From a virus (taxonomy: Duplodnaviria > Heunggongvirae > Uroviricota > Caudoviricetes): a stretch of DNA of 64,000 bases. The stretch is from IMG/VR virus record IMGVR_UViG_3300023238_000006, positions 1-64,000 of that record. One strand, given 5' to 3'. Of the stretch, positions 26,813 to 49,110 are shown piece after piece. The notes below the pieces were generated by a model. That model saw nothing but the letters and a program-made list of their open reading frames with translations, was not told the origin of the DNA and did not search any database. Numbering within the stretch: the stretch's first letter is position 1; each line of letters starts with the position of its first letter. Made by a program: the position numbers and the translations under genes.

Positions 26813-27846
26813 TGGCTAGAAAATTGCTACCAGCGGATATCTTACAAAGATTCATAACCACACATGGGCAAACCTATGACTACACTAACAGTGATATAAC
26901 TACTAGAACAACAAAAATCTCAATAAGATGCAGGGTTCACGGGCCTTTTACACAGATGCCTAAAGAGCATATGCTGGGACAAGGATGCCCTAAGTGTGGG
27001 CATTTAGCCACAGCGGCTGCTTTAAGGCACTCTCAAGAAGAATTTGTACTAAAGGTGCAGGTAATCCACAATAACAGGTATGACTACTCATTAGTGAAGT
27101 ATACGTCTGATGCTGATAGCATTGATATAATTTGCAACACTCACGGTGTATTCTCACAAATAGCCTCATCCCATGTCCAAGGAAGTGGGTGCCCTAGGTG
27201 TGCAATTGAGAAAACACATAGTGAGGCTACGTATACAACTGCTGAATTCATCGAAAAAGCTAGTGTAAAACATAGTAATTATTACACATACCCAGAGACT
27301 AACTATGTTAAAGGTACTGTTAAAGTGGTGATAACATGCCCTGTTCATGGGACTTTTCAACAAACACCAGTGGCACACCTAACAGGCCAGGGGTGCAAAG
27401 TGTGTGTCACTGCAGAAAGAGGGCTAAAAACCAGAAACTCAACAGCTAACTTTATAGAGCAGGCAGGTAAAGTGCATGGTAATAAATACTGTTATGCGAA
27501 TACCTCTTATGTACTATCTGTTGAAAAAGTTACTATTACATGCCCTATACACGGGGACTTCACGCAGACTCCTACTAATCATCTGTATGGTTATGGATGT
27601 AGTAGATGTGGTGTGGTAAAATCAAATAAAAGGTTTCACCACATACCCACAACGCTTTACTACTTTAAAATAAAAGATTGTTGGAAAGTGGGCATAACAG
27701 TATTTGATGTAAAAACACGTTACAACACTGTGGATCACTCCAATATTAGTGATTTGACAACATGGAAATTCTCATCAGGCAAAGAAGCTTATGAGTATGA
27801 GCAGAATATCATATCACTTAACAAAGAACATGCCTATACGGGTTAA
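26797..27846 (+). CDS. Putative homing-endonuclease-like protein with four tandem zinc-ribbon repeats (HG-F-Q-P--H--G-GCP-C) and a C-terminal T5orf172/GIY-YIG-like domain.
   Basis: VHGPFTQMPKEHMLGQGCPKCG, THGVFSQIASSHVQGSGCPRCA, VHGTFQQTPVAHLTGQGCKVCV, IHGDFTQTPTNHLYGYGCSRCG, then LYYFKIKDCWKVGIT. Confidence 0.55.
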   Translation: MGGAVMARKLLPADILQRFITTHGQTYDYTNSDITTRTTKISIRCRVHGPFTQMPKEHMLGQGCPKCGHLATAAALRHSQEEFVLKVQVIHNNRYDYSLVKYTSDADSIDIICNTHGVFSQIASSHVQGSGCPRCAIEKTHSEATYTTAEFIEKASVKHSNYYTYPETNYVKGTVKVVITCPVHGTFQQTPVAHLTGQGCKVCVTAERGLKTRNSTANFIEQAGKVHGNKYCYANTSYVLSVEKVTITCPIHGDFTQTPTNHLYGYGCSRCGVVKSNKRFHHIPTTLYYFKIKDCWKVGITVFDVKTRYNTVDHSNISDLTTWKFSSGKEAYEYEQNIISLNKEHAYTG

Positions 27847-31489: not shown

Positions 31490-32323
31490 ATGTTTAAAGA
31501 CAAAACAATTGCCATATACGACATTGAAAGTCCTTGGATAACTGATGCAGGAATCTCTGCCTTAACCCAAATATATTGTATAGGGGTGGTAACACTACTA
31601 AATGGCAATATCATAGATAAGAAGATGTATACCGAACACTGGACTACCTACTCAGATGGTTCATTAGTAGAATGTATGACTGCATTAAACTCTGCAGACA
31701 TTCGTGTAGCATTCAACAACATTGGATTCGATGACGTTGTAATGTCTAACGTTATAGGTGTAGGGATGCCTATAATATCTAGCACTCTGGACTTCAACTC
31801 CTTAGACTTAATCATATGCGCTAAGCTATGCTACAGCAAAGATGAACTAATGGCTATAGATATAGAGCTAAACCTAGATAAAGCCTTATGGGGTTCTTAC
31901 TCCTTACGAGCCTTTGGAGCTCGTCTAGGCAACGCTAAGATGCACTTCGATGAATTCGATGGTGGACTTACAGAAGACCTCTGTACGTACTGTATACAGG
32001 ATTGTGTGGTAACTGCAGACCTGTTTATACACCTGACTCAAAAAGAAAACTTTCCGATAGCTGCTGTACTAACAATAGAACATAAAGCTAGCACAATCAT
32101 CCAAGAGCAGACATTCCACGGATTTTATATTGATATAACTAAGACCAGAGCCCTTAACACTAAACTTCTCAAAGAGAAGCTAGAGATAGCTACTGAACTA
32201 AGCAAGACCTTTATGCCCAAATGGCTACCAGACGGTAAGGTACTTACCTATAAAAAGAAAAGTATAACTAGGAAGTTTCTTCCTAACAACAGTTACATTC
32301 CCCTACTGGGCACAAAGGTTTAA
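31490..32323 (+). CDS. Family A (T7-like) DNA polymerase, N-terminal fragment: 3'-5' proofreading exonuclease domain plus the start of the thumb (277 aa).
   Basis: Exo I IAIYDIES. Exo II FNNIGFDD (T7 FHNGHKYD). Exo III YCIQDCVVTADLF (T7 YNVQDVVVTKALL). Collinear with T7 gp5 residues about 1-300. Confidence 0.8.
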   Translation: MFKDKTIAIYDIESPWITDAGISALTQIYCIGVVTLLNGNIIDKKMYTEHWTTYSDGSLVECMTALNSADIRVAFNNIGFDDVVMSNVIGVGMPIISSTLDFNSLDLIICAKLCYSKDELMAIDIELNLDKALWGSYSLRAFGARLGNAKMHFDEFDGGLTEDLCTYCIQDCVVTADLFIHLTQKENFPIAAVLTIEHKASTIIQEQTFHGFYIDITKTRALNTKLLKEKLEIATELSKTFMPKWLPDGKVLTYKKKSITRKFLPNNSYIPLLGTKV

Positions 32324-32324
32324 A

Positions 32325-32489
32325 ATGAAATACTCTCAAATGATAGCAATACACACCACAGCACTACTACTGTTAGGGGTAGCACTGGCTATATACCCAA
32401 TACTATTACCTATAGTCCTACTAGCTATGTGTGTAGTCCTAGTTGTACAAGCTGGAGTTGAGCTATACCACTGGCTGACTAATGTCTAG
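32325..32489 (+). CDS. Small membrane protein (54 aa).
   Basis: Manual translation. TAAAATG follows the DNAP-exo stop. Confidence 0.35.
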   Translation: MKYSQMIAIHTTALLLLGVALAIYPILLPIVLLAMCVVLVVQAGVELYHWLTNV

Positions 32490-32589
32490 CATAGGTGTAG
32501 CTGAGGCTATACTAACTATGGGGATATTAATAATATTAATAACGTTCATAGGCACATACTGTGCTGTTGAACACTCTAAGAAAAACTAA
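32482..32589 (+). CDS. Small membrane peptide (35 aa).
   Basis: Manual translation. Confidence 0.25.
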   Translation: MSSIGVAEAILTMGILIILITFIGTYCAVEHSKKN

Positions 32590-32864
32590 ACTACCTTCCT
32601 CCTGGCATTGCTAATACCATATAAGCCCAATGGCGTCTATTGGTCTTCCGCTGACGTACACTCGCTAAGACTAACTCCATTCATCTTCATTGGAGTATAA
32701 CATTAAGATGACCGAGAAGGGCACTATCATACTAACATCCGCAGCTCGGTATATAAAAATAAGAGCAAGGGATGTATGGCGGGACTAATACACCTTGCTT
32801 AATACAAACGTAATACAGAAAGATACTGTATAACAGACCCAGAGGCCGTTGAGGTAACGCTGCG

Positions 32865-32954
32865 GTAGGTGTAAAGTAGTCCGGTAACACTTGGTGTATC
32901 ATTTACCTGCAGAGGTATGCATCTAGATCGCTGGTTCAAATACAGCCACCTACC
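32865..32954 (+). tRNA. tRNA-like element with a 7-bp acceptor GTAGGTG/CACCTAC, a D-arm AAGT..ACTT and a T-arm GCTGG-TTCAAAT-ACAGC. The 37-nt middle region (anticodon/variable) could not be folded by hand.
   Basis: Manual base-pair check. Class II or intron-containing tRNA, or a tRNA-like decoy. Confidence 0.25.
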
Positions 32955-34348
32955 ATGAGAGAAGACTCAAACAACATTCCCGAACTTACAGTTCTAATCT
33001 ACCTTCATCGCGGATAGAAATTAGATAACCCTACAGGCTCCCGGCGGGCTGTGTAGGTTGAAACAAGCCATACTACTTAGGCTAAACTAGTAGCAGAGCA
33101 TAACTGCAATATCCGTCTGGTCCCCGTAAGGGACTCTATAAACTCCTAGTGAGCATACACACTAAGACAGGAATACAAGAGACTGCCTGACTACGCAGTG
33201 TATTGCGTAATACACCCAGTCAGTTGTGTGTTCTCTAGGGTTTTATACCCAAAGTTTCTATCAGCTTGATGATGGCGTATATCCTACGACACAAGGATCA
33301 ACACCGTGCCTCTTATCAAGGCTAGTACGCTGGTTGTATACGTATGAAGAAGTAGCTTGATACCTACATTTGAACCAAAACCGGTAACTGCTCCCGTTAA
33401 GGGCTCTGAGACGAGAAGGCTCTCGCCTTCTCTCCACAGCCTAGCAGCTAAGTTCCTAAGAGCATATAGATAACTGTTCCATAGATGTAAGCTGATGCCC
33501 AACGCTATGACTAAGTAACCCTAGAGCCCAACGAGATTAATTATCTCACCACACATTTGGATAGCACGTCGAGAGTCACTATGCCGGTCCATTGTAGATA
33601 CTCAATGCTATATGTTCTTAGGAGCTTATCCCTCCTGAAAAAAGCTAGTAACTTAATTACTCTTCTTAAACGTCAATGCACTATTATGCCCCAGATGTGA
33701 ACAGGGAATGCCTGGCAACGTATATAGGGAATGTTGTGAAGTGTCTTGCGTATTAGCACCATAGGTAGCACTTGGAGTATAGGTACCTAGCGACCTGCAC
33801 TCGAAAATTATATCAATGCGCTAAGCCCTTGTTGATACCTTGGGAGATGTCTACACTCGATGTGAGGGGACGCTAAATACAAGATCATCAGACCACTAGT
33901 TACCCATCACTAGTATAAATAAGATGGGCAATATGTAAACGTATAAAGTAGGGTTGCCTACAAATGTGGCTGTCCTCGAGGCTTGTAGACCACATCCTAT
34001 TAAGGTGCAGTTCAACTCTGATTCGTTTACACCAAAAATAAGTACCAGTCATCTAACTAGTCAAGAAGCTCCATTAAAGGAGCTAATGTGAGTGCAACTC
34101 TCACCTGGTACACCAGCTCCGTATAGAGTATAAACGATTCAGTCAAGAGTAAAGACTATAACTTATCCCCTCGGGATTGAAGCTTCAAAAAGTACGTCAC
34201 TGTGGAACAGGACTTAAAAGAAACAGTAGGTTCCTCACGTACCTTAAACGTGGGTGCATATGCTGCAGCCTGGTTGGCACGAGAGGTTCGATTCCTTTAA
34301 CAGCACTAGATATATCGAAAGATCCTCATATCTTAAATGGGGACGTAA

Positions 34349-34424
34349 GTACCATTAGCTTAATCGGTAAAAAGCGTCGACTATTAAAACATAAGATACT
34401 GGTTTGAATCCAGTATGGTACACA
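34349..34424 (+). tRNA. tRNA-like element with acceptor GTACCAT/ATGGTAC, U8, a D-arm GCTT-AATCGGTAAA-AAGC containing GG, and a T-arm ACTGG-TTTGAAT-CCAGT. The anticodon stem does not pair.
   Basis: Manual folding. Probable degenerate or pseudo-tRNA. Confidence 0.2.
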
Positions 34425-35190
34425 AAACAATGGGGCGAGCATTACAGAGGCAGGATGAATTTGCAACTTCATCAGTGAGTTTGACTCTCACCGCTCCACC
34501 ATGATACCACCTATGAGCATAAGTTATAAGCCAGGAATAAAACCGCCTGCAGTACCGAACAGTAAGGTACAGTGTTACCGGTCCACTTATGTTCTTAGGT
34601 GTTATCACCAGTCCCCAGCTAAGACTTAAAATAAATGCACTCCAAGCCATTATGAGTATAAACCATTGGCAGTACCCGCCGATAGCAGGGGCAGTTTAAG
34701 TGCTAACCAAGTCTCCGGAAGCTCATCTAGGTCAAGACTTTAAACTGACCCTAAACGAAGCAGGTTTTACCGTTGTACCTTAAACAATGGCTACGACTAT
34801 CCCTGTGGGTACATACAGGAAGACAGGATAAGTATACACTGCCTGAAGCGTGTAGTTAGTTGCGCACATCTAACCCAGTGCTGTATGTATCCTCAGGGGT
34901 CGTCTAGCTAAAGAATGACCGCTAATCATAAACTATAGCAGCGTGGCAAACAGAGCTGAAAGACTCAATACCAACCAGAGGTACCGGACGCTATAAAAAT
35001 TCGGGGTAGACGGAGTTAACCATAGGTGTACAACTACTGGTGCAAAAGCAATAAACTTATGAAGGTTATATACTCTCCTTTGGAGATCAAGTATGTAGCC
35101 TTTAGTAAGTTTATACAATACGTAACATAGTACAGATTAAAGCCATAAAAGGTACTTAATCTGTATTATAATAAACATTAAAGGAACCAG

Positions 35191-35529
35191 ATGGAAACAA
35201 CTCTACTAACAATAGCCCTAATACTAATCACCCACTTCGTGGCTGATTTCGTACTCCAATCAGACTACGTAGCTAAGAACAAATCTAAATCTAACTGGGT
35301 ACTACTACAACACGGCACTATCTATATGATACCCTTCATCATCATAATAAGCCCACTCTACGGCCTAGTTAACGCTATCCTGCACATTGCTGTGGATTAC
35401 TTCACATCACGTGCTACAGGTAAGCTATGGGCTGCTGGTAAGACTCATGACTTCTTTTTAGTTATAGGATTTGATCAGTTATTACATTCACTAACGCTAA
35501 TAGGTACTTACTACTTATTAGTATTATAA
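35191..35529 (+). CDS. Small polytopic membrane protein (112 aa), first gene of the NAD-salvage operon.
   Basis: ORF track. Three hydrophobic segments. RBS aaaggaaccagATG. Confidence 0.5.
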   Translation: METTLLTIALILITHFVADFVLQSDYVAKNKSKSNWVLLQHGTIYMIPFIIIISPLYGLVNAILHIAVDYFTSRATGKLWAAGKTHDFFLVIGFDQLLHSLTLIGTYYLLVL

Positions 35530-35537
35530 GGACTTCT

Positions 35538-36062
35538 ATGCTTAAATACGGAATAATACTTGGGAGATGTCAGCCCATGCATTTAGGCCACCAACACATT
35601 ATCAACAAAATAATATCGGATGGACTAACACCTGTAGTAGTACTAGGCTCTTCACAAGAAGCTGGTACTACTAAGAACCCATATCATCCACTACAACGTA
35701 TACACATGCTTCGCCTAGTATACCCAGATATCAAATGCTTCGCATTAGATGATGCTGACTGCTGGGACGAATGGTACAACAAGCTTATAAACTCAATAGA
35801 GTTAGTAATAACTGATGACTTATCAGAAGTAACTATCTACCTCCACGACAAACTTGAAGACTTACAAGACTTCACCTTTAGAGGTATAGACTATTTCAAT
35901 GAGTCATACAGCAAAGTCTACGAAGTAGACGGTATGCATACAACTAAGCTAGCTATATCTGATATTCAGATTAGAGCTAAATCAATACGTGAAGACTTAG
36001 AAGGTAATAAACACTTCTTAGATACTAACGTGTATAACTATATAAAGGGACTTAATGACTGA
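35538..36062 (+). CDS. Nicotinamide/nicotinate mononucleotide adenylyltransferase (NadM/archaeal-type NMNAT, 174 aa).
   Basis: GIILGRCQPMHLGHQHII is the G-R-F-Q-P-F-H-x-G-H nucleotidyltransferase signature of NadM-type NMNAT. Confidence 0.7.
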   Translation: MLKYGIILGRCQPMHLGHQHIINKIISDGLTPVVVLGSSQEAGTTKNPYHPLQRIHMLRLVYPDIKCFALDDADCWDEWYNKLINSIELVITDDLSEVTIYLHDKLEDLQDFTFRGIDYFNESYSKVYEVDGMHTTKLAISDIQIRAKSIREDLEGNKHFLDTNVYNYIKGLND

Positions 36063-36603
36063 TACAACAATAGAATGGCAATCCCCTGAGACAACACCAG
36101 CAGGTGATCCGTTCCTAACAGTAAAGAAAGCTAGAGGTTACTACTACTACGCAGAGCGTGGGGGAGTAGACTCTATAGCCTTCGTACTGCTGGATAAAAC
36201 AGCTAACAAGATTGGTCTTATACTAGAGAGTAAACCTCCTATGGATGAAATGGCTTCAATTGAAGTTGACTACATCACTGCATTTGGGGGGTCTATAGAC
36301 TCACCAGACTCTAAGACTGATATAGTTATAACTGAGGTATTAGAGGAAGCTGGTTACGTAGTAACAGCTGATAATGTAACTGAAGTTGGATCAACTGTGG
36401 TATCGACCCAAATGAGTCAAACACTTTACGCCTACACAGTAGACGTTACAGGTATACCTAAGACTGCAGAGACTGAGTACGAGTCTCAAGGTAAAGGTGA
36501 TAGAACACAGTGGATGACATTCACTGAAGCATTAGCAAACTCTGACTGGAAGTCTATATTTATTATGACTATGTTAGGGCACAAGCTAGATGGAGCTAAA
36601 TAA
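36055..36603 (+). CDS. Nudix hydrolase (ADP-ribose pyrophosphatase-like, 182 aa).
   Basis: Nudix-box-like GGSIDSPDSKTDIVITEVLEEAGY. 8-nt overlap with the NMNAT gene. In other phages NMNAT and Nudix are fused as NatV. Confidence 0.6.
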   Translation: MTDTTIEWQSPETTPAGDPFLTVKKARGYYYYAERGGVDSIAFVLLDKTANKIGLILESKPPMDEMASIEVDYITAFGGSIDSPDSKTDIVITEVLEEAGYVVTADNVTEVGSTVVSTQMSQTLYAYTVDVTGIPKTAETEYESQGKGDRTQWMTFTEALANSDWKSIFIMTMLGHKLDGAK

Positions 36604-37997
36604 TGCAATCAATACTAAACCTAGCTGATTCCTACAAATTCTCACATTCAAGCCAGTACCCAAAGAATATGGTAAGTCAATATGACTACATGGAATCACG
36701 TGGGGGCACTTACCCTGCAACAGTATTCGTAGGACTTCAGTACTACTTATTCAAGTACCTAACAGTACCTGTGACTGAGTTAGAAGTAAAACTAACAGCG
36801 GCTAAAGCTGCTCGTCACGGAGTACCTTTCGATCTAAATGGTTGGATGCATATTGTAAACAACTGTGATGGCTTAATTCCCGTAGAAATTAAAGCAGTAC
36901 CAGAAGGCAGCCTAATACCTACCAAGATGGTACTAGTAACTATAGAATCAACAGACACAGCTGTTCCATGGATAGCAGGATTCTTAGAGACTATCTTAAT
37001 GAAGATCTGGTACCCAACTACAATAGCTACTAAATCTTACTACACTCGTAAGATGCTAGAGAAGTACGGAGATCCTGAATGGGCTAAGTTCGCTTACCAC
37101 AACTTCGGAGACCGTGGCGCTACCTCAGTAGAATCTGCAGCTATAGGAGGCTTTGCCCACTACACCCAATTCATGGGAACTGATAACTTCAACTCCCTAG
37201 ACATTGCAGAGAACTACTACGCTACAACAGCCATGCCAGCATACTCAGTATACGCTACCGAGCACTCTAGCACTACCTCACACGGTCGTGAAGGAGAAGA
37301 AGAGTTTGTCTATACTCAGCTATTAGAAAACCCTGGTAAGGCCATCATGAGCTTCGTAGCTGATTCATACGACGTGTATGAGTTTACTAAGTTCTGTACA
37401 GCCCCTAACTCTCGTATTAGAGAACTAATTGAGTCTAGACCTAGCCAAAAGTTAGTCCTCCGCCCTGACTCTGGTAACCCTATTGAAGTGATGACACAGA
37501 TGTTAGCTATAGTTAAAGCCAATAATTGGGGCTATACTGAGACTCCTACAGGATTACTATTCAATCAACTAGGTATCTTATGGGGTGATGGAATCACTCC
37601 TGAAGTAATAGAAGAAATCTTAGCTATGGTACCACGTGTGGGCTATGCAGCTGGGAACTTCATATTTGGAAGTGGTGGTGATCTCATGCAGAACATCACT
37701 AGAGACACTCAGAGGTTTGCTATTAAATGTAGTAGTATCACTGTAGCACATGATGAGTTTATAGGTAATACCTCGTACGAAGAGGTAGATGTCTACAAAG
37801 ACCCTATTACTGACCCTGGTAAAGCCTCTAAACGTGGTAAGGTAACTACTTACATTAGAGAAGATGGTACTTACTTCGTAGACCTGGTAACAAATAAAAC
37901 ACCTGATGCTAAGAATGCTTTAACAACTGTATTCTTAAATGGTACGGTAACTAAAGAGTATACACTAGAAGAGATACGTAACAACTCAAAGGACTAA
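36603..37997 (+). CDS. nadV: Nicotinamide phosphoribosyltransferase (NAMPT/NadV, 464 aa).
   Basis: N-terminal LNLADSYKFSHSSQYP (the DSYK motif of NAMPT/NAPRT). Length is typical. Co-operonic with NMNAT. Confidence 0.75.
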   Translation: MQSILNLADSYKFSHSSQYPKNMVSQYDYMESRGGTYPATVFVGLQYYLFKYLTVPVTELEVKLTAAKAARHGVPFDLNGWMHIVNNCDGLIPVEIKAVPEGSLIPTKMVLVTIESTDTAVPWIAGFLETILMKIWYPTTIATKSYYTRKMLEKYGDPEWAKFAYHNFGDRGATSVESAAIGGFAHYTQFMGTDNFNSLDIAENYYATTAMPAYSVYATEHSSTTSHGREGEEEFVYTQLLENPGKAIMSFVADSYDVYEFTKFCTAPNSRIRELIESRPSQKLVLRPDSGNPIEVMTQMLAIVKANNWGYTETPTGLLFNQLGILWGDGITPEVIEEILAMVPRVGYAAGNFIFGSGGDLMQNITRDTQRFAIKCSSITVAHDEFIGNTSYEEVDVYKDPITDPGKASKRGKVTTYIREDGTYFVDLVTNKTPDAKNALTTVFLNGTVTKEYTLEEIRNNSKD

Positions 37998-37999
37998 CT

Positions 38000-38665
38000 A
38001 TGGCTAAACTATCAATCTGCTGCGTCTCGGACACACATGGTAAACACAGCCAACTAACCCTCTCTAAATACCCGGCTGATGTACTTGTACATGCTGGGGA
38101 TTGGACCGGAGGTAAGGACATAGCCCTAACTGAGACTATAGCCTTCCTAGACTGGTTCTCTGAGCAACCATTTGAACACAAGCTATTCATAGCCGGTAAC
38201 CACGAGAGAACTGTAGAGGCTAACCCCCAAGACTTTCAAGACTTACTAAAGCACTACCCAACTATAGAGTACATTCACCATAAAGCGGTAACTATTTCCG
38301 GTATTAACTTCTACGGCAGTAACTACTCTAACGAGTTCTGTGACTGGGCATTTATGGAAGAAGAGCCTGAACTATCTAAAGTCTGGGACCTAATCCCTAA
38401 TGATACTGATGTCCTTGTGACTCATGGGCCAGCCTATGGCTGTCACGATCAAGTTAAGCATGCTTACGGACGTGATCCCCATGTAGGGAGTAGATCTCTT
38501 CATCATAAGAAACTATCCCTCCAGGATACATTAAAACTCCACATAAGTGGGCACATCCACGAAAGTTATGGCACATCCTCAGATCTATGTATAAATGTAT
38601 GTGCCTCGGTACTAAATGAGAAATATCAATTAGTAAATGAACCAGTAGTAATAACACTACACTAG
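38000..38665 (+). CDS. Calcineurin-like metallophosphoesterase (221 aa).
   Basis: CVSDTHG, GDWTGG, IAGNHE and the later GHIHE are the MPP family motif series. Confidence 0.65.
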   Translation: MAKLSICCVSDTHGKHSQLTLSKYPADVLVHAGDWTGGKDIALTETIAFLDWFSEQPFEHKLFIAGNHERTVEANPQDFQDLLKHYPTIEYIHHKAVTISGINFYGSNYSNEFCDWAFMEEEPELSKVWDLIPNDTDVLVTHGPAYGCHDQVKHAYGRDPHVGSRSLHHKKLSLQDTLKLHISGHIHESYGTSSDLCINVCASVLNEKYQLVNEPVVITLH

Positions 38666-38738
38666 CTAGAAGCCCAGCAACAGGGGGCGAAACACTGTCA
38701 GTCAGCAAAGGCATAAAGCCTTCACAAAAGGAAATACA

Positions 38739-39023
38739 ATGATCAAGACTATCAAAAACAGAAGAGCATACCCAGCAGCACTTAAGATGGCTGCACTAAA
38801 GGCATCTAAAGGCAAGAAGGCTAAATCAAATGCAGCAATTGCAGATGACTTCAACATCCACAAGTCAACTCTAGGGAATTGGAGACGTGCTGCAGGTATT
38901 CAACGCCCCCAGCCTACAGGCTTAGCTAGACACAACTCTGATCAAAAGGCTGAGAAAGCTCACAACACTCCTACTATGCAAACAAACGGTACAATCATGT
39001 ACCGTGGTGTAGAGTACAAGTAA
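38739..39023 (+). CDS. Small basic protein (94 aa) with a putative helix-turn-helix (IADDFNIHKSTLGNWRR).
   Basis: ORF track. The HTH resembles the transposase/sigma-region-4 type. Confidence 0.45.
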   Translation: MIKTIKNRRAYPAALKMAALKASKGKKAKSNAAIADDFNIHKSTLGNWRRAAGIQRPQPTGLARHNSDQKAEKAHNTPTMQTNGTIMYRGVEYK

Positions 39024-39255
39024 TTAGTTGGTTGAGGTGAAAGGCCTCTTATAAATAGCGTAGAGCTTACCACATAGTCTACCTAGACTCTAAACTTGCT
39101 GGCAACCAACCAGAGTGTTGATGGCTACACAGGTTTAACCATCTGCGAATGAGGCTCAGCCTAGCATAAGGCTAGTAGAGGCATGGTACCTCTACGATCA
39201 TTTATACTACTTATGAGTATAACGGTACCAATAATTAATATAAATAGGAATAACT

Positions 39256-40239
39256 ATGGCAACAGCACTACAAGACTTAATAAATATAATTAAAACAGAA
39301 GACAGTACATTGTTGCAATCAATAATAAAAGATATTGATGCATCAGACTACTCATGGGGTATGCCTGAGTTTTTAACCCACTTAACAACTTCACAGGTAG
39401 CTAGATTAACTACTAGCCAAATAACTCTACTAAAGAATATGAGGTTTAAAAGGGGGCAAACCTTAAGGCTGTATAGAGAAAGATGTATATTTGCAACAAC
39501 AATATCAGGAGCGCACTCTAAACAATGGGCCTTCATGCATGCCTCGGCGTTGTTTGCTAAGGAAGACCTTATCTACCTCAGCAAGTATGAAACTACTAAA
39601 TGGAAGGAAGCTAACCCATCAGGTGGTAGCACTAAAAAAGGTACTGAGCTTAACTTCGCTATGGACGACTTCTCTCTAGCACTATTCAAAGCCTCTATAA
39701 CTAAAGGCTTTCTCCGTACTGAAGCTAAGAACTACATCTTAGCAGTGAACAAAGCCTACTCTAGTGTGACTGCTACTGACCCTGTTAAGAAGCTAGCAGC
39801 AACTAAAATTCGTAACAAGTTCTACGCAGTTATACTAAACAACACCGAGGTACATACTAACGCTATGTTAAAGGAGCTACAATGGACAGACTTAGAGCCT
39901 GCAAAAGGTGGATACTACCAAGCCTCTGAAGACGAGGCACTATCCTTCTCATTCGGCGGTCACAGACATTTACTAAGCTACACAACTACTAACGCTATGG
40001 AGACGTACTCAACTGATATTGAAATAACTACCCACAACAACGGTACTGACAACGAACGTCATGCTGATCGTTTAGCCAGTGCTACCAGTATACTACTAAC
40101 TATTCACGCAGCAACTGGCAATACAGCTTACTTAGCACTAGCTACTCGTATGCTAAAAAACATCACATCTGATAGTAAGATTAAAGTACTTAACACAACC
40201 TCTGCCGTAGCTATGCTACGAGCTATACTAACTAAATAA
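39256..40239 (+). CDS. Hypothetical protein (327 aa) immediately upstream of the AAA/VWA pair.
   Basis: ORF track. No motif recognised. Confidence 0.55.
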   Translation: MATALQDLINIIKTEDSTLLQSIIKDIDASDYSWGMPEFLTHLTTSQVARLTTSQITLLKNMRFKRGQTLRLYRERCIFATTISGAHSKQWAFMHASALFAKEDLIYLSKYETTKWKEANPSGGSTKKGTELNFAMDDFSLALFKASITKGFLRTEAKNYILAVNKAYSSVTATDPVKKLAATKIRNKFYAVILNNTEVHTNAMLKELQWTDLEPAKGGYYQASEDEALSFSFGGHRHLLSYTTTNAMETYSTDIEITTHNNGTDNERHADRLASATSILLTIHAATGNTAYLALATRMLKNITSDSKIKVLNTTSAVAMLRAILTK

Positions 40240-40247
40240 GGATTACA

Positions 40248-41444
40248 ATGAAAGATACTAAACAACAAACAAGAATTAAGACTAACCTAAAAGCACAGCT
40301 AGACGGGGTAGCAATACTACCACTATGTTTATTTGGAGGACCAGGGTTAGGTAAAAGCTCTATTATCTCCCAAGCAGCTAGAGACTTAGGTGCCTCAGAA
40401 AATGTAGTATCAATTTCATCAGTAAACTTCGAGTACTTCTCAGGTATACCTGCCTTTAGTACTGATAGCTCTCTTGATCAATACTCAGTATCAGGGGCTA
40501 AAGGTGTGCAAGCAACAATATGGTCTATAGCAGAACTTATTATGGCTACTAACCGTGTTGCAGAAAAGAACCCTAACGGTGCTGTACTACACCTAGAAGA
40601 TATGCATACAGCAGATAAAACTACTGAAAATGTTATGTACCAGCTATTATTAGACAGAAAGCTTGGTGACTACAAGCTACATCCTAAAGTGGCTATCATA
40701 TGCTCTATGAACCACTCTAAGGAATCTGGAGGGGGGCACTTCAACTCAGCAGCAGTAAAGTCAAGACTATCTCTAATGGAGTATGTATTTAACTTCGACG
40801 ACTGGTACACTAACTTTGGACTATCTCTCCACCCTTGGTTATCTTCATTCTTAAAGGCTAACCAACAGTACATCATAGAGACTGAGAGCAAGACTTTAGA
40901 GCCTTCAGGGTCAGCTAGATCATACAGTAAACTATCACTAGAGTTTAACCTCTACAATGATGTGGACTTAAATGAGATGTACAAAGACTTAGCATCTGGA
41001 GTATTATCAATCAACGCTGTCAACTCTTTAGAGAAACACGTAATTTACTACCAGAAGATTGACTTCACAGGTATTGTCAAGCATAGAACAATACCTACCC
41101 TATCATCTCTCCCAGACCTTGATAAAGTATTATGGGGATATGTATTCCATAGTGTTGTAACTCCAGAAGATGGTGTCTACATCATCGACCTTATCAATGC
41201 TATAACCACTCAGCCTCATTACCAAAGCCTACTAGGCTTTCTATCAGCTGAGATTCACTCTAAGTACAAGATTCAACTATCTGGTGAGACAATCACACCA
41301 GGGCAAAACCTTGTACTAAGTAAGATCATGGGTTCATTCGATCCATCTCTATACAAGGTTACAGCACCAGTCGCTAAGAAGCTTGCAGAAGCTGAGCTAG
41401 CCAACAAAACAGAGGTCATGAGTCTCATGGCTAAATACATGTAA
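40248..41444 (+). CDS. AAA+ ATPase of the MoxR/CobS-like type (398 aa).
   Basis: Walker A LFGGPGLGKSS. Walker-B-like AVLHLEDMH. Size and architecture are those of CobS/MoxR-like ATPases commonly found paired with VWA proteins. Confidence 0.65.
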   Translation: MKDTKQQTRIKTNLKAQLDGVAILPLCLFGGPGLGKSSIISQAARDLGASENVVSISSVNFEYFSGIPAFSTDSSLDQYSVSGAKGVQATIWSIAELIMATNRVAEKNPNGAVLHLEDMHTADKTTENVMYQLLLDRKLGDYKLHPKVAIICSMNHSKESGGGHFNSAAVKSRLSLMEYVFNFDDWYTNFGLSLHPWLSSFLKANQQYIIETESKTLEPSGSARSYSKLSLEFNLYNDVDLNEMYKDLASGVLSINAVNSLEKHVIYYQKIDFTGIVKHRTIPTLSSLPDLDKVLWGYVFHSVVTPEDGVYIIDLINAITTQPHYQSLLGFLSAEIHSKYKIQLSGETITPGQNLVLSKIMGSFDPSLYKVTAPVAKKLAEAELANKTEVMSLMAKYM

Positions 41445-41453
41445 GGAACTACA

Positions 41454-42899
41454 ATGACAAAACAAGAATTCTTAATTGAACTAAAAGCAATCGTGATAAC
41501 AGGCATGGTTAAAGAGGTTAACATTATGTTAGGGGCTAGCAAGGCTGCTTTCCTATCAACATCACTCCTCCTTAAACTTCAACCAACATTTGTAGCTATA
41601 GAATCTCCCTACGCTAGACTACCTAAAGCTTCAACTATCGAAGACTTAGATGAAATCTTCAAAGCTTACATACCTATTGATGATCCTTCATTACTAGTAT
41701 TCGAAATTGCATACGATAGTAAGAAGACTATTAAACGTGCACTGAAACTTGCTGAAAAACACACAGCTTACTTCGCATTCCACTACATCAAACATCTACA
41801 TGCAACTCTTGCACAAGTTAACACTACTGCATACGTTCAAGCTATGATAAAACAAGTAGCTGGTAAAGAGCACCCATTCCTCCTAGCATCTGCAGTAATT
41901 GACAGATCTATGAGTGATATGGCTCTTAAAACACTAGCAGCAGCTGGTGTTAACACTAGGCCATACGAGAATGTTATTGAGCATATGGAGACTACTAATA
42001 TCGCTGAAGAGTTAGAGCTACTAGCTTCAGCTATGGAGTCTAAAGTTATCACTAAGATCCCTGGCTATATTCGTAAATTACGCATAAAGCCAATTGATAA
42101 CATCGCAGAGCTATTAGAAGTAGTGGCTAACCACGGCCAAGGTCAAGGCGAGTTCGGGTACCAGCAAGGTCAAAGAACTGCTAGTGTAATAGTAGACCTG
42201 TCACAAGCTCTTAACCACACCCTCTCATCATCTTGTAAAGGTACTGCAGTTGGTGACCTTATGGCTACTAGCTTTGAAGCTAATCACATCGATGCCTTAT
42301 GGTTCGATGACTTAACTAAAACTGTATTATCATCAGTAATTGAAAAGTCTAACGAAGGTTATGCGTCATGGGGTAATCTGTCTAAGACTAAACGCCACTT
42401 ATACCATAGCCCAGTTAGAATCAATACTGACCACAAGTTACAACTATATGTAACAATAGACCAAAGTGGGTCTGTATCTACTGGAGACCTTCAGAAGATA
42501 CTATCAGTATTTGAACAATACTCACACCTAATATCTCAAGCAGTAGTTATGCATCACACAGCTAGCGTTATACAGCAGTATGAGCTAGATGATAGCTATG
42601 GAGAGTTAATAGATCACCCAGAGTTTAAAGCGGCCTTTGCTTGTCGCCACGGTGATGGTGGGACATCTCACGGAGATTGTGTTAAGCGTATAGCTAAACA
42701 TATCACTAAGAACAACATCGACCCTGAGAGAGCTATTTGGCTCAGCTTCAGCGATGGCTATAGCGACTTAGAAGACGTATGCATGACTGAACATAGTATT
42801 ATGGACAAGTTAGAAAAGTTCTTCATCAGAGATAGTAGAGGTAGAAATATTATCCTACATACAATCCCTGGTAAGAACCACAATATAGTAACGCCTTAG
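41454..42899 (+). CDS. von Willebrand factor A (VWA) domain protein, CobT-like (481 aa).
   Basis: MIDAS motif YVTIDQSGSVS (DxSxS) in the C-terminal half. Immediately downstream of the AAA+ gene. Confidence 0.6.
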   Translation: MTKQEFLIELKAIVITGMVKEVNIMLGASKAAFLSTSLLLKLQPTFVAIESPYARLPKASTIEDLDEIFKAYIPIDDPSLLVFEIAYDSKKTIKRALKLAEKHTAYFAFHYIKHLHATLAQVNTTAYVQAMIKQVAGKEHPFLLASAVIDRSMSDMALKTLAAAGVNTRPYENVIEHMETTNIAEELELLASAMESKVITKIPGYIRKLRIKPIDNIAELLEVVANHGQGQGEFGYQQGQRTASVIVDLSQALNHTLSSSCKGTAVGDLMATSFEANHIDALWFDDLTKTVLSSVIEKSNEGYASWGNLSKTKRHLYHSPVRINTDHKLQLYVTIDQSGSVSTGDLQKILSVFEQYSHLISQAVVMHHTASVIQQYELDDSYGELIDHPEFKAAFACRHGDGGTSHGDCVKRIAKHITKNNIDPERAIWLSFSDGYSDLEDVCMTEHSIMDKLEKFFIRDSRGRNIILHTIPGKNHNIVTP

Positions 42900-42907
42900 G
42901 AGATGCA

Positions 42908-43600
42908 ATGGATAACTTCGAATACTTAGTTAGAGTTGCAGAAATGGACACACTAACTACCCTTAAAGCTAAGGAGCAGTTCATTAGAGAGCAGGTAGCT
43001 GCTATCTATGAAATAGATGGGATGGATAGCTGGAGCCATTATGTTAATGACTCAAATGTTGCCGCAGTTATACCTAGATATAAACTACTTACTAAAGCGT
43101 TAAATCTCTATGATGGGGCTAATGACTTACCAGATAAACTTCTTAAAGTTAAACGTAGGTTATGTGCTAGTTTACTAACTAGGTTTGTAGAGCAAAAGCA
43201 TAACTACCCAGACTTCGTAAATTTCTTTGAGTTTGATGCAGAGTTAAACTTTCGTGGAATGTATGGGGGGGACGCTATATCTGTAATACTTATGATAGGC
43301 ACAGAGGTGCCTATACAAAAGGTAGAGTTGACGCTACATGCACCATACAGACTGCAGTATGTGTTTAACGACATACTAACAGACAGTGATAATTATAGCC
43401 TTAGAAATATACTAGCAGCAGAAGACTTAAAAGCTGCACTACATAACCGTGAGGATCTTACAATGCTTAATCAACTAATAGATAAGGCTTACAGTGACCT
43501 TAATAAAAGATCCTTACCAGCTGACCTATCTAAAGTACCTATAAACCTAGAACGCCTAAACACTATCTCAGCCACTATGATGGCAAAGTTATGCCCTTAG
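42908..43600 (+). CDS. Hypothetical protein (230 aa). It overlaps the DNAP polymerase ORF by 10 nt in another frame.
   Basis: ORF track. Not similar to DNAP thumb sequences by eye. Confidence 0.5.
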   Translation: MDNFEYLVRVAEMDTLTTLKAKEQFIREQVAAIYEIDGMDSWSHYVNDSNVAAVIPRYKLLTKALNLYDGANDLPDKLLKVKRRLCASLLTRFVEQKHNYPDFVNFFEFDAELNFRGMYGGDAISVILMIGTEVPIQKVELTLHAPYRLQYVFNDILTDSDNYSLRNILAAEDLKAALHNREDLTMLNQLIDKAYSDLNKRSLPADLSKVPINLERLNTISATMMAKLCP

Positions 43601-44958
43601 CCCCTTACAAAATCCCAAGTGGGAGGTACTTGAAAAATGGTAGTTGGAAACCTCCAGGTAAAAAAACGTTCAAATGGTTCTCAACTCCTCATAGGACGAT
43701 AAACGTAACTAGGGAAGGGGAGTACCAACCTATTAAGTATGAGCCGTTTAATCCTGGGTCACGTTCACATATAAAGAAGTGGATGGAAGAGGACTATGGC
43801 TACACGTTTCCTTATTATACAGAGAAAGGATCTCCTAAAGTTGACCCCGAGTCGTTAGACAATATGAACCACCCAGCAGGAAAGATGCTTAAAAGGTTTT
43901 TAAAGGTTGGAAAGGACCAGTCGCAAATAGGCAATGGGGCAGGATCTCTTATAAGTCACTACAATGAAAACACAAAAGGTATACACTGTAGAGTTGACAC
44001 TAATGGCACTATTACAGGCAGATTCTCGGTAAATTCTCCAAATATGGCACAGATACCATCTCAAGAGGAATTCAGGGAGCTGTTCTCTGCACCAGAGGGC
44101 TGGACCTTTGTAGGTGTGGATTTTTCTCAGCAGGAGCTAGTAAATCTAGCGCATTTCCTGTACCCTTATGATGGCGGAGCATATGCTAAAACTGTTGCTG
44201 ATGGTAATAAAGAAGATGAAACAGATCCACATAATGTACATAAAAGGCTGGCTGGGCTAGATACTAGAGGGCAGGCTAAAGTGTTTGGATTCCAGTACCT
44301 GTATGGTGCAGGTGAAGTTGTTCTAGGAGCAGCTGTAAGGTCAGAGCTGTTAGCCGATTACACAGATAAAGAATATGCAACAGCTAAGAAGAAAATAGAC
44401 AGACGTATAGTAATTATAGACGATATGCCTCTATTCCCTATAAAGAAGGATAAGTATATACAAGTCACAGAACTTCTAATACATCAAGCTATATACGGCA
44501 ACCGCATAGTTACCAAATTCGAAAAGAACTTTCCTGGTTTATCAGAGCTAATCAAAGCACTCCAGAAAGAAGCTAAGGACTACGGCACTATCACTATACC
44601 TGGCGGGAGGGTTATGCCTTGCAGATCCTCCAGGAACGCGCTGAACACTGCTATGCAATCCCTAGGAGGCACCGCAATGAAGTACTATTTGGTAGCTATA
44701 CATAGAGAATTAGCTAAAGAAGGTATTATACATGGAAAGCACTTCATACAGCAAGCAACAATATATGATGAGGTTGATATGATAGTAAAAACTGAGTACG
44801 CAGAAGCAGTTGGCAAAACTCTAGAACGCTGCTTCTCAATTATATCAGAGGAACTATCCCTAAACACGCACTACAAAGGCGAAGCCCTTCTTGGGGGAAT
44901 AAGTATAGATACTGACACAAAGTTGCCTATAGCAAATTCTTGGTGGGGTTGTCATTAA
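43591..44958 (+). CDS. Family A (T7-like) DNA polymerase, C-terminal fragment: thumb, palm and fingers (455 aa).
   Basis: EPFNPGSRSHIKK matches T7 VVFNPSSRDHIQKK. TGRFSVNSPNMAQIPS matches TGRxSSxxPNLQNIP. Motif A VGVDFSQQEL. Motif B GQAKVFGFQYLYGAG. Motif C IYDEVDMIV. The C-terminus ...NSWWGCH matches T7 ...NWAICH. Confidence 0.85.
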   Translation: MPLAPYKIPSGRYLKNGSWKPPGKKTFKWFSTPHRTINVTREGEYQPIKYEPFNPGSRSHIKKWMEEDYGYTFPYYTEKGSPKVDPESLDNMNHPAGKMLKRFLKVGKDQSQIGNGAGSLISHYNENTKGIHCRVDTNGTITGRFSVNSPNMAQIPSQEEFRELFSAPEGWTFVGVDFSQQELVNLAHFLYPYDGGAYAKTVADGNKEDETDPHNVHKRLAGLDTRGQAKVFGFQYLYGAGEVVLGAAVRSELLADYTDKEYATAKKKIDRRIVIIDDMPLFPIKKDKYIQVTELLIHQAIYGNRIVTKFEKNFPGLSELIKALQKEAKDYGTITIPGGRVMPCRSSRNALNTAMQSLGGTAMKYYLVAIHRELAKEGIIHGKHFIQQATIYDEVDMIVKTEYAEAVGKTLERCFSIISEELSLNTHYKGEALLGGISIDTDTKLPIANSWWGCH

Positions 44959-46736: not shown

Positions 46737-47690
46737 ATGGCTAAAAACAAACTCACGAAGAAGGTTCTCAATGAAAATTGGGAAGAGATACTACGTCTAA
46801 AAGCCAAGGGTGAATCTACTACAGATATCGCTATGCTATTTGGGGTACCAAGGGGGTCACTGGTTGCCAGGTTGAAGAAGAAAGTAATTTCTAACACACC
46901 TGCTAACCCCACATCACGGACTTTAATCATTGATATAGAGAATGCACCCATGTTAAGTTACCACTGGGGAATTTACCAGCAAGACATAGGCAAACCGATG
47001 CGTGTAGAAGGCAACCGCTCATACATGATGAGCTGTGCAATGGGGTGGTTAGATGAAGACAAGGTACATTACTTTGAAACTCGTACTGAGGATGACTCAA
47101 CACTAACAGCTAAGATACTAGAATTTCTAGACGAAGCTGACTTTGTAATAGGTCACAATGCTAAACGCTTTGATATGAAAAAGATCAATGCCTATGCTAT
47201 CCTTAACAACCTCTCACCTCCTAGCCCCTACAAAGTTATAGACACTATGTTGATGGCTAAGCAGCAGTTCTCATTCGAACGTAACACCCTCGAATACCTC
47301 TCAAACGCACTATGTACTCAGACTAAATCTGCCCATGGAAAGTTCAAAGGCTTTGAACTGTGGAGTGAATGTATGAAAGGCAATGAAGAAGCTTGGGCAG
47401 AGATGAAGCACTACAACATCCAAGATGTTGTTGCTACTAAAGAACTCTACCTGAAGCTACGTCCTTGGGTTAAAGGTCACCCCAATATGGTTGCTAAATC
47501 TGGCTCTGAAAAGAACAGATGTACTACATGTGGCTCATCAGATATTAGTCCTCATGGTTACCATGTGTCTAATTCTGGCAAGTTCCAGCAATACAAGTGT
47601 AATGACTGCGGGGGATTCTCTAAGGCTCGTAAGAACCTTCTACCAAAAGAAGCTAAGGCATCACTGCTAACAGCTATACCTAACGGTTAA
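46737..47690 (+). CDS. Stand-alone DnaQ/DNAP-type 3'-5' exonuclease (317 aa) with an N-terminal HTH-like segment and a C-terminal CxxC...CxxC zinc ribbon.
   Basis: Exo I LIIDIENAP. Exo II VIGHNAKRFDMKKI. Exo III YNIQDVVATKELYLKL. These are close to T7 gp5 motifs and to the 31490 ORF. C-terminal CTTCGSS...CNDCGG. Confidence 0.6.
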   Translation: MAKNKLTKKVLNENWEEILRLKAKGESTTDIAMLFGVPRGSLVARLKKKVISNTPANPTSRTLIIDIENAPMLSYHWGIYQQDIGKPMRVEGNRSYMMSCAMGWLDEDKVHYFETRTEDDSTLTAKILEFLDEADFVIGHNAKRFDMKKINAYAILNNLSPPSPYKVIDTMLMAKQQFSFERNTLEYLSNALCTQTKSAHGKFKGFELWSECMKGNEEAWAEMKHYNIQDVVATKELYLKLRPWVKGHPNMVAKSGSEKNRCTTCGSSDISPHGYHVSNSGKFQQYKCNDCGGFSKARKNLLPKEAKASLLTAIPNG

Positions 47691-47709: not shown

Positions 47710-49110
47710 ATGCTGGAACTATACCGCGAAAGCTTAGCTAAAGATGGCTGCTTCGTACAAGAATACCCTCAAGTGTTTAAGGCAGCAGCAGCAACAATCC
47801 CATCACACATACCATCTAAGATGGCTATACTAATGGCAGCTGCAGAGCTTACAGTATTTGCAGGGCACTTACGTAAACCAATCATGTGGCACGGATCTAA
47901 AATCCCAGTAAATATGATAGCCTTCCTAATAGGAGGGAGTGGCTCAGGTAAGGGGTTGTCAATTAAATGTATCTCCAAGATACTTGAAAATGGTAATACT
48001 CAGATAGATAAAAGCCGTGAGGCTTATGCCAAAGTCCTAGCAGTGGAAGCTGCTGAGGCTGATGGCAAGAAGCCAACTGACTGGCGCAAGTACTACGCTA
48101 AGCCTAAAAGCCTAAAGTCTACTGTATCAACTCTACCAGGTACTATGAAGCATTTAGCCTCCCTTGAAAAAGGTAAGCTAGGTTCTGGCTATATGTATGT
48201 AGATGAGATAGGTAGTGAATTAGTTAGCAACAAAGACTTATCCGAGAATATCATAGCCCTAGCAATAGGGTATGATCTTGGAGAAATAGCCCCTAAACTA
48301 CTTAAGGATGACACCAACCAAGTTGAGGCCATCCACAACCTGCCTTACTCAGCACTGATGTTTGGCTCACCAGCTAACATCATCTACGACGAGGTAGTAA
48401 AGAAGAAGTTCAAGGACGAGTTCTCTACTAAACTATCCAGAAGGGTTCACTTCGCTTTCATCACTGAGAAAGAAGAGAAGCCTGTATTTGATTCTATAGC
48501 GGAGTCTAGACTCCATGCTAAAACTGAACGCGATAGAGTAGCTGAAGCCACTGCTGGCCTTGCACCTTGGTTCACTTCACTAGTCACAACAACAACTCAC
48601 ATACCACTAGCGGTTACAGAAGAGGTTGAAGACTTATTTAGTGATTACCAGGGGTACAATGACTGGTATGCTGAAACTATCTCTAAACAGTACCCTATGA
48701 CAATCCTGCATAGACTCCACCTACAATGGAAGAGTCTAAAGATAGCAGGGGCTCTAGCTATACTTAGCGGAGATACTGTGATAACTAAACAACATATGGT
48801 AGAAGCTATACGCTTCTCTGAGATATTTGCTAATGACCTTATGGCCTTTGAAACAGAACTCAGTAAAGAACCATATGAGTTATTAGTATCGTATATGCAT
48901 AGTATTGCGGTAGGAGGGACAGCTACCGTAAGTATACACCAACTACGTAAACTAGGCTTTATAACTGGACAAGGTTCCGACCGTAAAGCTATAGAGCTTG
49001 TGGACTTGGCTAACAACCTTGATACCAGCAAATACGAAGTTATAGGTAAATATATCCATTTCTTTCAAGATGTTGGAGACACAAGTTACGACCGTGATAC
49101 TTTAGCTTAG
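47710..49110 (+). CDS. P-loop NTPase (466 aa), possibly a replicative helicase or primase-associated ATPase.
   Basis: Walker A FLIGGSGSGKGLS. Walker B-like GYMYVDEIG. The family is not resolvable by eye. Confidence 0.45.
   Translation: MLELYRESLAKDGCFVQEYPQVFKAAAATIPSHIPSKMAILMAAAELTVFAGHLRKPIMWHGSKIPVNMIAFLIGGSGSGKGLSIKCISKILENGNTQIDKSREAYAKVLAVEAAEADGKKPTDWRKYYAKPKSLKSTVSTLPGTMKHLASLEKGKLGSGYMYVDEIGSELVSNKDLSENIIALAIGYDLGEIAPKLLKDDTNQVEAIHNLPYSALMFGSPANIIYDEVVKKKFKDEFSTKLSRRVHFAFITEKEEKPVFDSIAESRLHAKTERDRVAEATAGLAPWFTSLVTTTTHIPLAVTEEVEDLFSDYQGYNDWYAETISKQYPMTILHRLHLQWKSLKIAGALAILSGDTVITKQHMVEAIRFSEIFANDLMAFETELSKEPYELLVSYMHSIAVGGTATVSIHQLRKLGFITGQGSDRKAIELVDLANNLDTSKYEVIGKYIHFFQDVGDTSYDRDTLA

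Follow-up and report, generated by a model that had tools for sequence, protein, structure and literature searches.

Phage DNA polymerases encoded by two cistrons have been described before. In the S-SBP1-like cyanophages, a fission between the exonuclease and polymerase parts was reported as the first in family A polymerases; this recent event, a 1-nt frameshift, left two adjacent, overlapping genes, and reassembly of their products was predicted from structure (Czernecki et al., NAR 2023, PMC10201439). In Aeromonas phage 25, the halves of the split PolB (gp43A/gp43B) co-purify and are active (PMC2988022). For PolA, the known splits are at other sites and involve adjacent genes. Here, we analyze a 64,000-nt stretch of DNA (hereafter the window), positions 1 to 64,000 of the IMG/VR virus record IMGVR_UViG_3300023238_000006 (Caudoviricetes), in which a T7-type polymerase is encoded by two distant open reading frames (ORFs) on the + strand. 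The N-half (31490–32323, 277 aa) comprises the exonuclease domain and the first thumb helix, and the C-half (43591–44958, 455 aa) comprises the remainder of the thumb together with palm and fingers; the distance between the two genes is 11,267 nt (11.27 kb). As judged from the sequence, a T7-type family A polymerase gene has here undergone a natural fission that was fixed long ago, does not involve an intein, lies at a new site, and has dispersed halves. The clade that carries it consists of uncultivated phages with contigs of up to ∼100–120 kb. A preliminary description of the window, made from the letters and their translations, had proposed the split polymerase, and we refer to it where our results bear on its claims.

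Both ORFs were compared with known polymerases by sequence, profile, and structure searches. The Pfam domains expected from the preliminary description were found for one half only. The C-half matches DNA_pol_A (PF00476, E = 3e-29; its score of 102.5 bits exceeds the cut-off of 34.3), and the Pfam scan returned no match for the N-half. A phmmer search of the C-half against the PDB retrieved T7 gp5 (E = 1e-30), as did a profile built from 29 homologues (E = 2e-54), in which profile position 45 corresponds to T7 residue 325. For the N-half, the PHROG family phrog_17, annotated as "DNA polymerase", was matched with E = 9e-20, tblastn aligned it to the N-termini of Autographiviridae polymerases at 24–30% identity, and a profile of 32 homologues matched T7 gp5 residues 40–272 in the PDB (E = 1e-20). 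AlphaFold models of the N-half (predicted local distance difference test score, pLDDT, 85) and the C-half (pLDDT 77) both gave T7 gp5 as the top Foldseek match, with E = 2e-9 and E = 1e-19, respectively. T7 gp5 is therefore the closest solved structure for both halves, by profile search against the PDB and by Foldseek. The two halves also occupy neighboring parts of the same protein. The N-half covers phrog_17 positions 714–902 and the C-half covers positions 887–1207. In the contiguous relative P0004 (689 aa), residues 3–248 correspond to N-half residues 7–269 and residues 253–689 correspond to C-half residues 2–455, so that 8 residues at the N-half tail and 1 residue at the C-half head are left over. 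Because the halves abut on P0004 and on phrog_17, duplicated domains are excluded, and the overlap or duplication that the preliminary description had named as grounds for rejecting its own reading was not found. Taken together, these comparisons indicate that the two ORFs are a single T7-type family A polymerase and not two polymerases.

The catalytic motifs, taken from the sequence and alignments, bear out the earlier assignment of Exo I, II, and III to the first ORF and of the thumb and motifs A, B, and C to the second. In the N-half, Exo I contributes D11/E13, Exo II N76/D81, and Exo III Y167/D171, and all six residues are invariant in 32 of the 32 aligned N-halves. Residues 1–125 of the C-half correspond to the second part of a thioredoxin-binding-domain-like loop and the remaining thumb, followed by the palm and fingers with motif A at D177–E182 (nt 44119–44136, +), motif B at R226–G239 (nt 44266–44307, +; R226/K230/Y238-G239), and motif C at Y392-D393-E394 (nt 44764–44778, +), the last of which supplies the catalytic D393/E394. 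The residues of the three motifs are invariant or nearly so across 29 C-halves. Within motif B, Phe234 of the window (RGQAKVFGFQYLYG) occupies the position of Tyr526 in T7 (RDNAKTFIYGFLYG), and most relatives have Phe here as well. This position is equivalent to Phe762 of the Klenow fragment, and governs dideoxynucleotide discrimination; marine surveys have connected it with the lifestyle of phages. A Tyr at this position of motif B is reported as typical of the T7-like cluster (PMC10201439), provided that the "B3" position of that study is equated with Tyr526, as we assume; the C-half of the window does not carry this Tyr.

To locate the break, the halves were aligned using MAFFT with 13 contiguous relatives and T7 gp5. 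The body of the N-half ends at approximately T7 residue 285 and the C-half starts at approximately residue 287. The break is thus inside the homologue of T7 gp5 residues 262–338, the thioredoxin-binding domain at the tip of the thumb (T7 numbering; Doublie et al. 1998). The contiguous relatives keep a loop of similar length, and the thumb-tip extension is rich in Lys/Arg and similar in length to that of T7. The clean break in the thumb that was noted at the outset is supported by the alignments, which place it at the thumb tip. The accompanying statement that the thioredoxin-binding loop is missing has to be corrected, as the loop is there, divided into two parts at approximately T7 residue 285. 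At the break, the N-half ends in ...PLLGTKV and the C-half begins with Met-Pro. A P-[LI]-[LI]-G-T tail terminates 25 of the 32 N-halves and is absent from the contiguous forms. The tail of the N-half (PLLGTK) and the head of the C-half (PLAPYK) were compared as a possible short duplication, an idea that was dropped since the similarity at the DNA level extends over I/M-P-L only. In the AlphaFold model of the N-half, a long helix (residues 216–241) is followed by a mostly low-confidence tail; residues 242–277 have no secondary structure and block means of pLDDT of 47–57, with values <50 at residues 242–250 and 261–265. Residues 1–160 of the C-half are likewise mostly of low confidence. Low-confidence ends in both models are as expected for thumb elements modeled without the partner chain. 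A search of the window for an ORF with a thioredoxin-like CxxC motif found none.

The split is not confined to the window. Protein searches identified at least 37 stand-alone N-halves of 166–283 aa (35 of them at 264–283 aa) with 42–68% identity, and ∼30 stand-alone C-halves of 432–461 aa with 38–53% identity, alongside contiguous relatives of 689–709 aa. Additional stand-alone clusters appeared in an exhaustive profile search of 1.8 billion representatives. In all stand-alone homologues, the start and stop are at the same aligned positions. It should be noted that the relatives were obtained via protein searches and an alignment-based scan only; a near-identity DNA search found no match among deposited phage genomes, and single-sequence pattern scans of IMG/VR returned nothing. 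On every contig where both halves could be placed, they are on the same strand with the N-half upstream. Next to the 11.27 kb of the window, the gap is 10.4 kb in L011/L006, 8.1 kb in L019, 7.8 kb in L035, 6.96 kb in L024, 3.7 kb in L012, and 1.5 kb in L110, which belongs to a second thumb lineage; in L013 and L017 it is >10.8 kb and >10 kb, respectively. The conservation of stand-alone halves across many metagenomes suggests that the split is ancient, as the preliminary description had supposed.

Phylogenetic trees were used to compare split and undivided forms. In the tree of the whole C-half, the two forms are interleaved. In the thumb tree, the window and all other "type I" split forms fall together with a bootstrap of <70%, with the contiguous P0025 and P0026 as sisters, and a second thumb lineage (100% bootstrap) contains both split and contiguous members. 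The tree of the palm and fingers disagrees with that of the thumb. Here, the window groups at 93% with the contiguous P0004 and with P0018, which has the other thumb type, and the core is strongly diverged in one type I subgroup (P0027, P0037, and others). The incongruence of the thumb and core trees points to a mosaic gene with a junction between the thumb and the core. The many switches between split and undivided forms that the whole-C-half tree seemed to require were dropped as a reading, because the separate thumb and core trees attribute them in part to intragenic mosaicism. In both thumb lineages, the break is at the same alignment position to within ∼3 residues, which may reflect either one old fission, undone later in some lineages by re-fusion, or several fissions at a single permissive site.

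We think it probable that the two chains reassemble into an active two-chain enzyme, for which the S-SBP1 PolA (predicted reassembly) and the phage 25 PolB (co-purification and activity) are precedents. In this model, the locus would produce two independently translated polypeptides, one of 277 aa with the proofreading exonuclease and the first long thumb helix, and one of 455 aa with the returning thumb, the palm, and the fingers. The thumb-tip loop is solvent-exposed, flexible, and tolerant of insertions, and because of this a chain break within it should leave the fold undisturbed. The most likely product would be a non-covalent heterodimer, held together by the normal exonuclease–polymerase interface and by pairing of the two thumb segments, and this heterodimer would work like the undivided polymerase. 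Once the gene had been opened, the interval may have come to hold the conserved module described below, whose five genes share one orientation, with the N-half side becoming a rapidly changing site for genes of RNA repair, tRNA genes, and anti-defence genes. The divergence of the halves is consistent with a partnership. Across 12 genomes, N-half identity correlates with that of the C-half thumb segment (r = 0.70) and not with that of the palm and fingers (r = 0.02), and the thumb and core are themselves hardly correlated (r = 0.10), all three values coming from non-independent pairs. The N-half tracks the thumb even though it lies kilobases away, whereas the core is encoded in the same ORF as the thumb. 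This pattern suggests co-inheritance or co-evolution of elements that must pair, together with a mosaic core, and it argues for a physical partnership of the halves.

Several points weigh against a two-chain enzyme. The correlations above are drawn from only 12 genomes and from pairs that are not independent, and in L007 and L008 no N-half was found within 10 kb of the C-half, these being the only stretches read. An exonuclease-fold protein of 317 aa, conserved near the C-half, could in principle supply the proofreading function. In addition, the C-half has no Shine-Dalgarno-like motif. An AAGGA motif of this kind precedes the ATG of the N-half and of most + strand genes. The ATG of the C-half overlaps the end of the 230-aa ORF upstream by 10 nt, and the same tight junction is seen in relatives. 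From the missing motif, the overlap, and the shared junction, we infer that the C-half is translationally coupled to the upstream ORF. Between 30.5 and 48 kb, neither the promoter consensus (33 matches, 44.9 expected) nor the terminator consensus (14 matches, 9.7 expected) was enriched over shuffled sequences, and both counts are uninformative on a shared transcript.

The 317-aa protein is encoded 1.8 kb downstream of the C-half (46737–47690, +) and was unmentioned in the preliminary description. It is assigned as a DEDD-type exonuclease (phrog_403, E = 1e-89; PF13482, E = 3.5e-10) with its own DEDD-type motifs, a weak N-terminal helix-turn-helix match, and a C-terminal CxxC...CxxC zinc ribbon. 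Members of its family are often labelled "DNA polymerase exonuclease subunit" (phrog_403) without evidence of such a role. With this protein at hand, the two ORFs might be functionally independent, the C-half acting alone or with the 317-aa exonuclease and the N-half serving as a free-standing nuclease with another role. The strong phrog_403 match and the conserved position of the 317-aa protein, which in L006, L007, and L008 follows the C-half at a distance of 0–2 kb (43–62% identity), would fit this arrangement, as would the location of the N-half, which is kilobases away and has its own ribosome-binding site. However, the N-half keeps ∼50 thumb-helix residues and half of the thumb-tip loop, which are conserved and would have no role in a free nuclease, and its divergence follows the thumb segment of the C-half. 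Moreover, members of the 317-aa family are present in 1615 phage records, some of them from phages that have their polymerase in one piece, and the family is absent from the L012 and L110 loci, where both halves are still present. The exonuclease domain has also been reported as necessary for the stability of family A polymerases (PMC10201439). We consider functional independence of the two ORFs quite unlikely. The 317-aa protein was also examined as the missing half itself and rejected, as it contains no thumb segment, shares no sequence similarity with the N-half, and is common beside undivided polymerases; by these features it is a separate nuclease.

Gene fission followed by assembly of two chains was also weighed against the rejoining of the halves. 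This could take place in the protein via a split intein that trans-splices, in the RNA via a trans-spliced intron, at the ribosome via translational bypass, or in the DNA via programmed removal of the 11.3 kb during infection. Fractured genes with split inteins and an intervening endonuclease exist in metagenomes (PMC2677866), group I introns are active in the clade (in the AAA gene of L013, Rfam 91 bits), and the C-half of L019 contains an endonuclease-like ORF. Nevertheless, a split intein requires ∼100 + 35 residues, and the 8 + 1 residues left over relative to P0004 leave no room for one. The C-half begins with Met-Pro, where a split intein would show its C-terminal block and then Cys, Ser, or Thr, and inspection of the broken ends, made without an intein profile search, revealed no intein-like terminal sequence. 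An Rfam scan found no intron in the window. The absence of an intein and of an intron, both asserted beforehand, agrees with our results. When the island borders were compared for excision-site repeats, a single shared 10-mer was found, which is at chance level (0.19 expected), and no recombinase is encoded in the gap. All stand-alone homologues share aligned start and stop positions. Rejoining of the halves in any of these forms appears very improbable. We regard it as barely credible that the split is a mis-assembly artefact or a pseudogenised polymerase in a defective element. The sequence is known from metagenomic assemblies only and the N-half has no Pfam match, but two contigs from separate assemblies, L004 (ENA, 97 kb) and L001 (Logan, 65.9 kb), have 0 mismatches to the window over 21490–42323 and 33591–54958 and jointly cover both junctions, which speaks against the assembly error that had been raised as a concern. 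Contigs assembled from further samples carry the two ORFs as well, the same split recurs on related contigs from unrelated samples, and the catalytic residues are invariant across divergent homologues. The guanine-plus-cytosine (GC) content across the interval is 0.375–0.44.

A natural fission leaves the question of how the gene was opened, and the preliminary description had suggested seeding by a homing endonuclease. No recognisable endonuclease was found at the break among the gap ORFs of the window, L012, L019, and L110 or the called genes of L011 and L013 (L024 and L035 were not scanned), and the support for this suggestion is circumstantial only. Endonuclease-like ORFs and group I introns are numerous elsewhere in these genomes. 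Three endonuclease-like paralogues of the phrog_681/DUF723 type are scattered over the window at 4965–5738 (−), 26797–27846 (+), and 55771–56649 (+), which suggests heavy homing-endonuclease traffic in the genome. A further interruption of the polymerase was observed in L019 (18879–20774) and L035 (8211–9734), where the C-half is broken just before motif A, after "...ELFSAP". The interruption in L019 holds a 248-aa DUF723/T5orf172-like (homing-endonuclease-like) ORF, so that the polymerase of L019 consists of at least three pieces or contains an intron; the interruption in L035 is ∼0.87 kb.

A more far-reaching reading, which goes beyond a simple two-chain enzyme and which we hold to be unlikely as a whole, is that fission made the replicase modular. 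The N-half and thumb would then form a co-evolving "adapter", with the core swapped between lineages by recombination. The cut loop with its P-L-L-G-T tail would be a new docking or regulatory site that might control polymerase assembly, perhaps helped by the AAA+ module that is conserved between the halves, and the break position shared by two thumb lineages, among which undivided relatives are interspersed, would result from recurrent splitting and rejoining of the gene at a single permissive site.

The interval between the halves had been viewed as an accessory island, or landing pad, for cargo. Comparison of the loci upholds this for the 5′ part, which adjoins the N-half, varies between loci, and in the window carries candidate NAD salvage genes. 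It does not apply to the 3′ ∼4.3 kb, which contain the 327-aa protein, the AAA+ ATPase, and the 481-aa and 230-aa proteins and are conserved in relatives, and the landing-pad idea therefore holds for part of the interval only. Straight after the stop codon of the N-half are two small hydrophobic ORFs of 54 and 35 aa (32325–32589, +) with no family match. They are followed, within the variable cargo zone, by an ORF-free stretch of 2.6 kb (32590–35190, +) with three degenerate tRNA-like elements. One of these (34349–34422) scores 46.7 bits in Rfam and is rejected by default ARAGORN, and the other two (32864–32955 and 34042–34115) appear only with relaxed ARAGORN thresholds. Rfam at a permissive threshold gave one tRNA match and one weak tRNA-like match only in this stretch. 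Short patches of it are conserved downstream of the N-halves in L013, L017, L018, L028, L030, and L033, and the equivalent place in L028 is occupied by six canonical tRNA genes.

The remaining cargo genes of the window (35191–38665, all +) were assigned from Pfam matches and one PHROG match. They are predicted to encode a DUF3307 membrane protein (35191–35529), a cytidylyltransferase-fold NMNAT-like protein of 174 aa (35538–36062), a 182-aa protein with no assigned function (36055–36603), a nicotinamide phosphoribosyltransferase (NAMPT; 36603–37997; PF04095, 1.8e-31; PF18127, 9e-22), and a calcineurin-like phosphoesterase (38000–38665). The pairing of the predicted NAMPT and NMNAT-like enzymes resembles the NARP2 NAD+ reconstitution pathway (bioRxiv 10.1101/2024.02.11.579819). 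Of the Nampt and Nmnat pair of NARP2, the former is clear in the window and the putative NMNAT-like partner is represented, at the sequence level, by a cytidylyltransferase-fold match only (E = 1.3e-5). In relatives, the 5′ cargo includes the anti-Pycsar protein Apyc1, RtcB, a CCA-adding-type (PolyA_pol-family) enzyme, RlaP, phosphoesterases, or canonical tRNA arrays, and L019 is nearly without cargo. An RNA-repair set is also present in the window downstream of the replication genes (52647–54913 and 58379–59464), consisting of an AAA_33 kinase-like protein, a T4 Rnl1-type RNA ligase, and a second RNA ligase (phrog_548), in keeping with the theme of the relatives' cargo (RtcB, CCA-adding-type enzyme).

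The conserved module, encoded on the + strand, consists of a small helix-turn-helix protein (38739–39023, sub-threshold HTH_Tnp_1), the 327-aa protein (39256–40239), a MoxR-type AAA+ ATPase (40248–41444), the 481-aa protein (41454–42899), and the 230-aa protein (42908–43600), whose end overlaps the start of the C-half. The module was found by tblastn in L006, L007, L008, L012, L019, L024, and L035; in L012, it is upstream of the N-half and not between the halves. Of the AAA/VWA cluster named in the preliminary description, the AAA+ ATPase is present. The VWA assignment of the 481-aa ORF comes down to a faint match (VWA_CoxE, E = 0.07) that overlaps another to phrog_1314, "HNH endonuclease" (E = 4.5e-4). 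A small protein of 92–106 aa with a sub-threshold HTH_Tnp_1 match (E 1e-4 to 1e-3) is present between the halves in three divergent loci, namely the window (38739–39023), L019 (10790–11068), and L012 (14193–14513, directly upstream of the C-half). The AAA+ gene is uninterrupted in the window. In L013, it is broken by the group I intron mentioned above (18460–18832, RF00028), and in L011 (6711–8989) an HNH_3 endonuclease ORF is situated between 66-aa and 323-aa fragments of the gene; L019 (12363–14645) has a 216-aa ORF of the same size and position as this HNH_3 ORF.

Two other features of the window were recorded. A primase-like protein also seems to be split, into a 466-aa ORF (47710–49110) and a 301-aa ORF (49532–50437) with a 420-nt spacer. 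Positions 31–444 of phrog_2135, "DNA primase", are found in the 466-aa ORF and positions 465–591 in the 301-aa ORF, and the pair (466–468 aa and 296–301 aa) recurs in L006, L007, L008, and L012. The segment at 21001–23000 has a GC content of 0.30–0.34 and GC skews of +0.35 and +0.21, compared with ∼0.40 and near-zero skew elsewhere.

In T7 gp5, the thumb-tip loop is continuous and binds host thioredoxin; the polymerase of the window retains the homologous extension, cut in two. The thumb tip, the site of the processivity-factor loop of T7, would be a natural permissive break point of use for split-polymerase engineering, and the locus could serve as a natural system for the study of two-chain replicase assembly and of processivity-factor docking on a cut loop. 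Its interval may also represent a recombination-prone slot that collects RNA-repair, tRNA, and anti-defence genes in a phage clade.

Among described systems, the S-SBP1 type is similar in that a T7-type family A polymerase is made as two polypeptides without an intein and with the exonuclease piece first. In cyanophage P-SSP2, which we checked in this analysis, the break is at T7 residues ∼183/212, in the linker between exonuclease and polymerase, whereas the break described here is ∼100 residues later, inside the thumb-tip loop (∼T7 285). The cyanophage genes overlap, whereas those described here are 1.5 to >10.8 kb apart with intervening genes, and the cyanophage event is recent, whereas this split is conserved at 42–68% identity. 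The MEP401-type OM43 phages likewise have a family A polymerase in two ORFs, broken within the polymerase domain, that is conserved across a related phage group (PMC10580990). Their pieces, of 387 and 236 aa, flank one 77-aa ORF in a gap of 0.24 kb, and these sizes put the break later than the present one, in the palm or fingers. The PolB of the T4-related Aeromonas phages 25 and 44RR and the NrdA of Aeh1 are further cases of an essential phage replication enzyme divided between two cistrons, whose products have to come together again (PMC2988022; PMC3045599). There, the cistrons are separated by a homing endonuclease gene or by a short spacer that is not translated, in contrast to the multi-gene interval seen here; phages 25 and 44RR also differ in that their polymerase belongs to another family, and no endonuclease was found at the break described here. 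The fractured genes of Dassa et al. (2009, PMC2677866) are, like this locus, replication genes of environmental phage-like DNA in two ORFs with DNA between, but they carry split-intein halves and rely on protein trans-splicing, for which there is no room, and there are no intein-like ends, in the present polymerase. Compared with these systems, the locus would represent a second, independent, and much older fission of a family A polymerase, at a different structural site and with its halves stably up to >10.8 kb apart.

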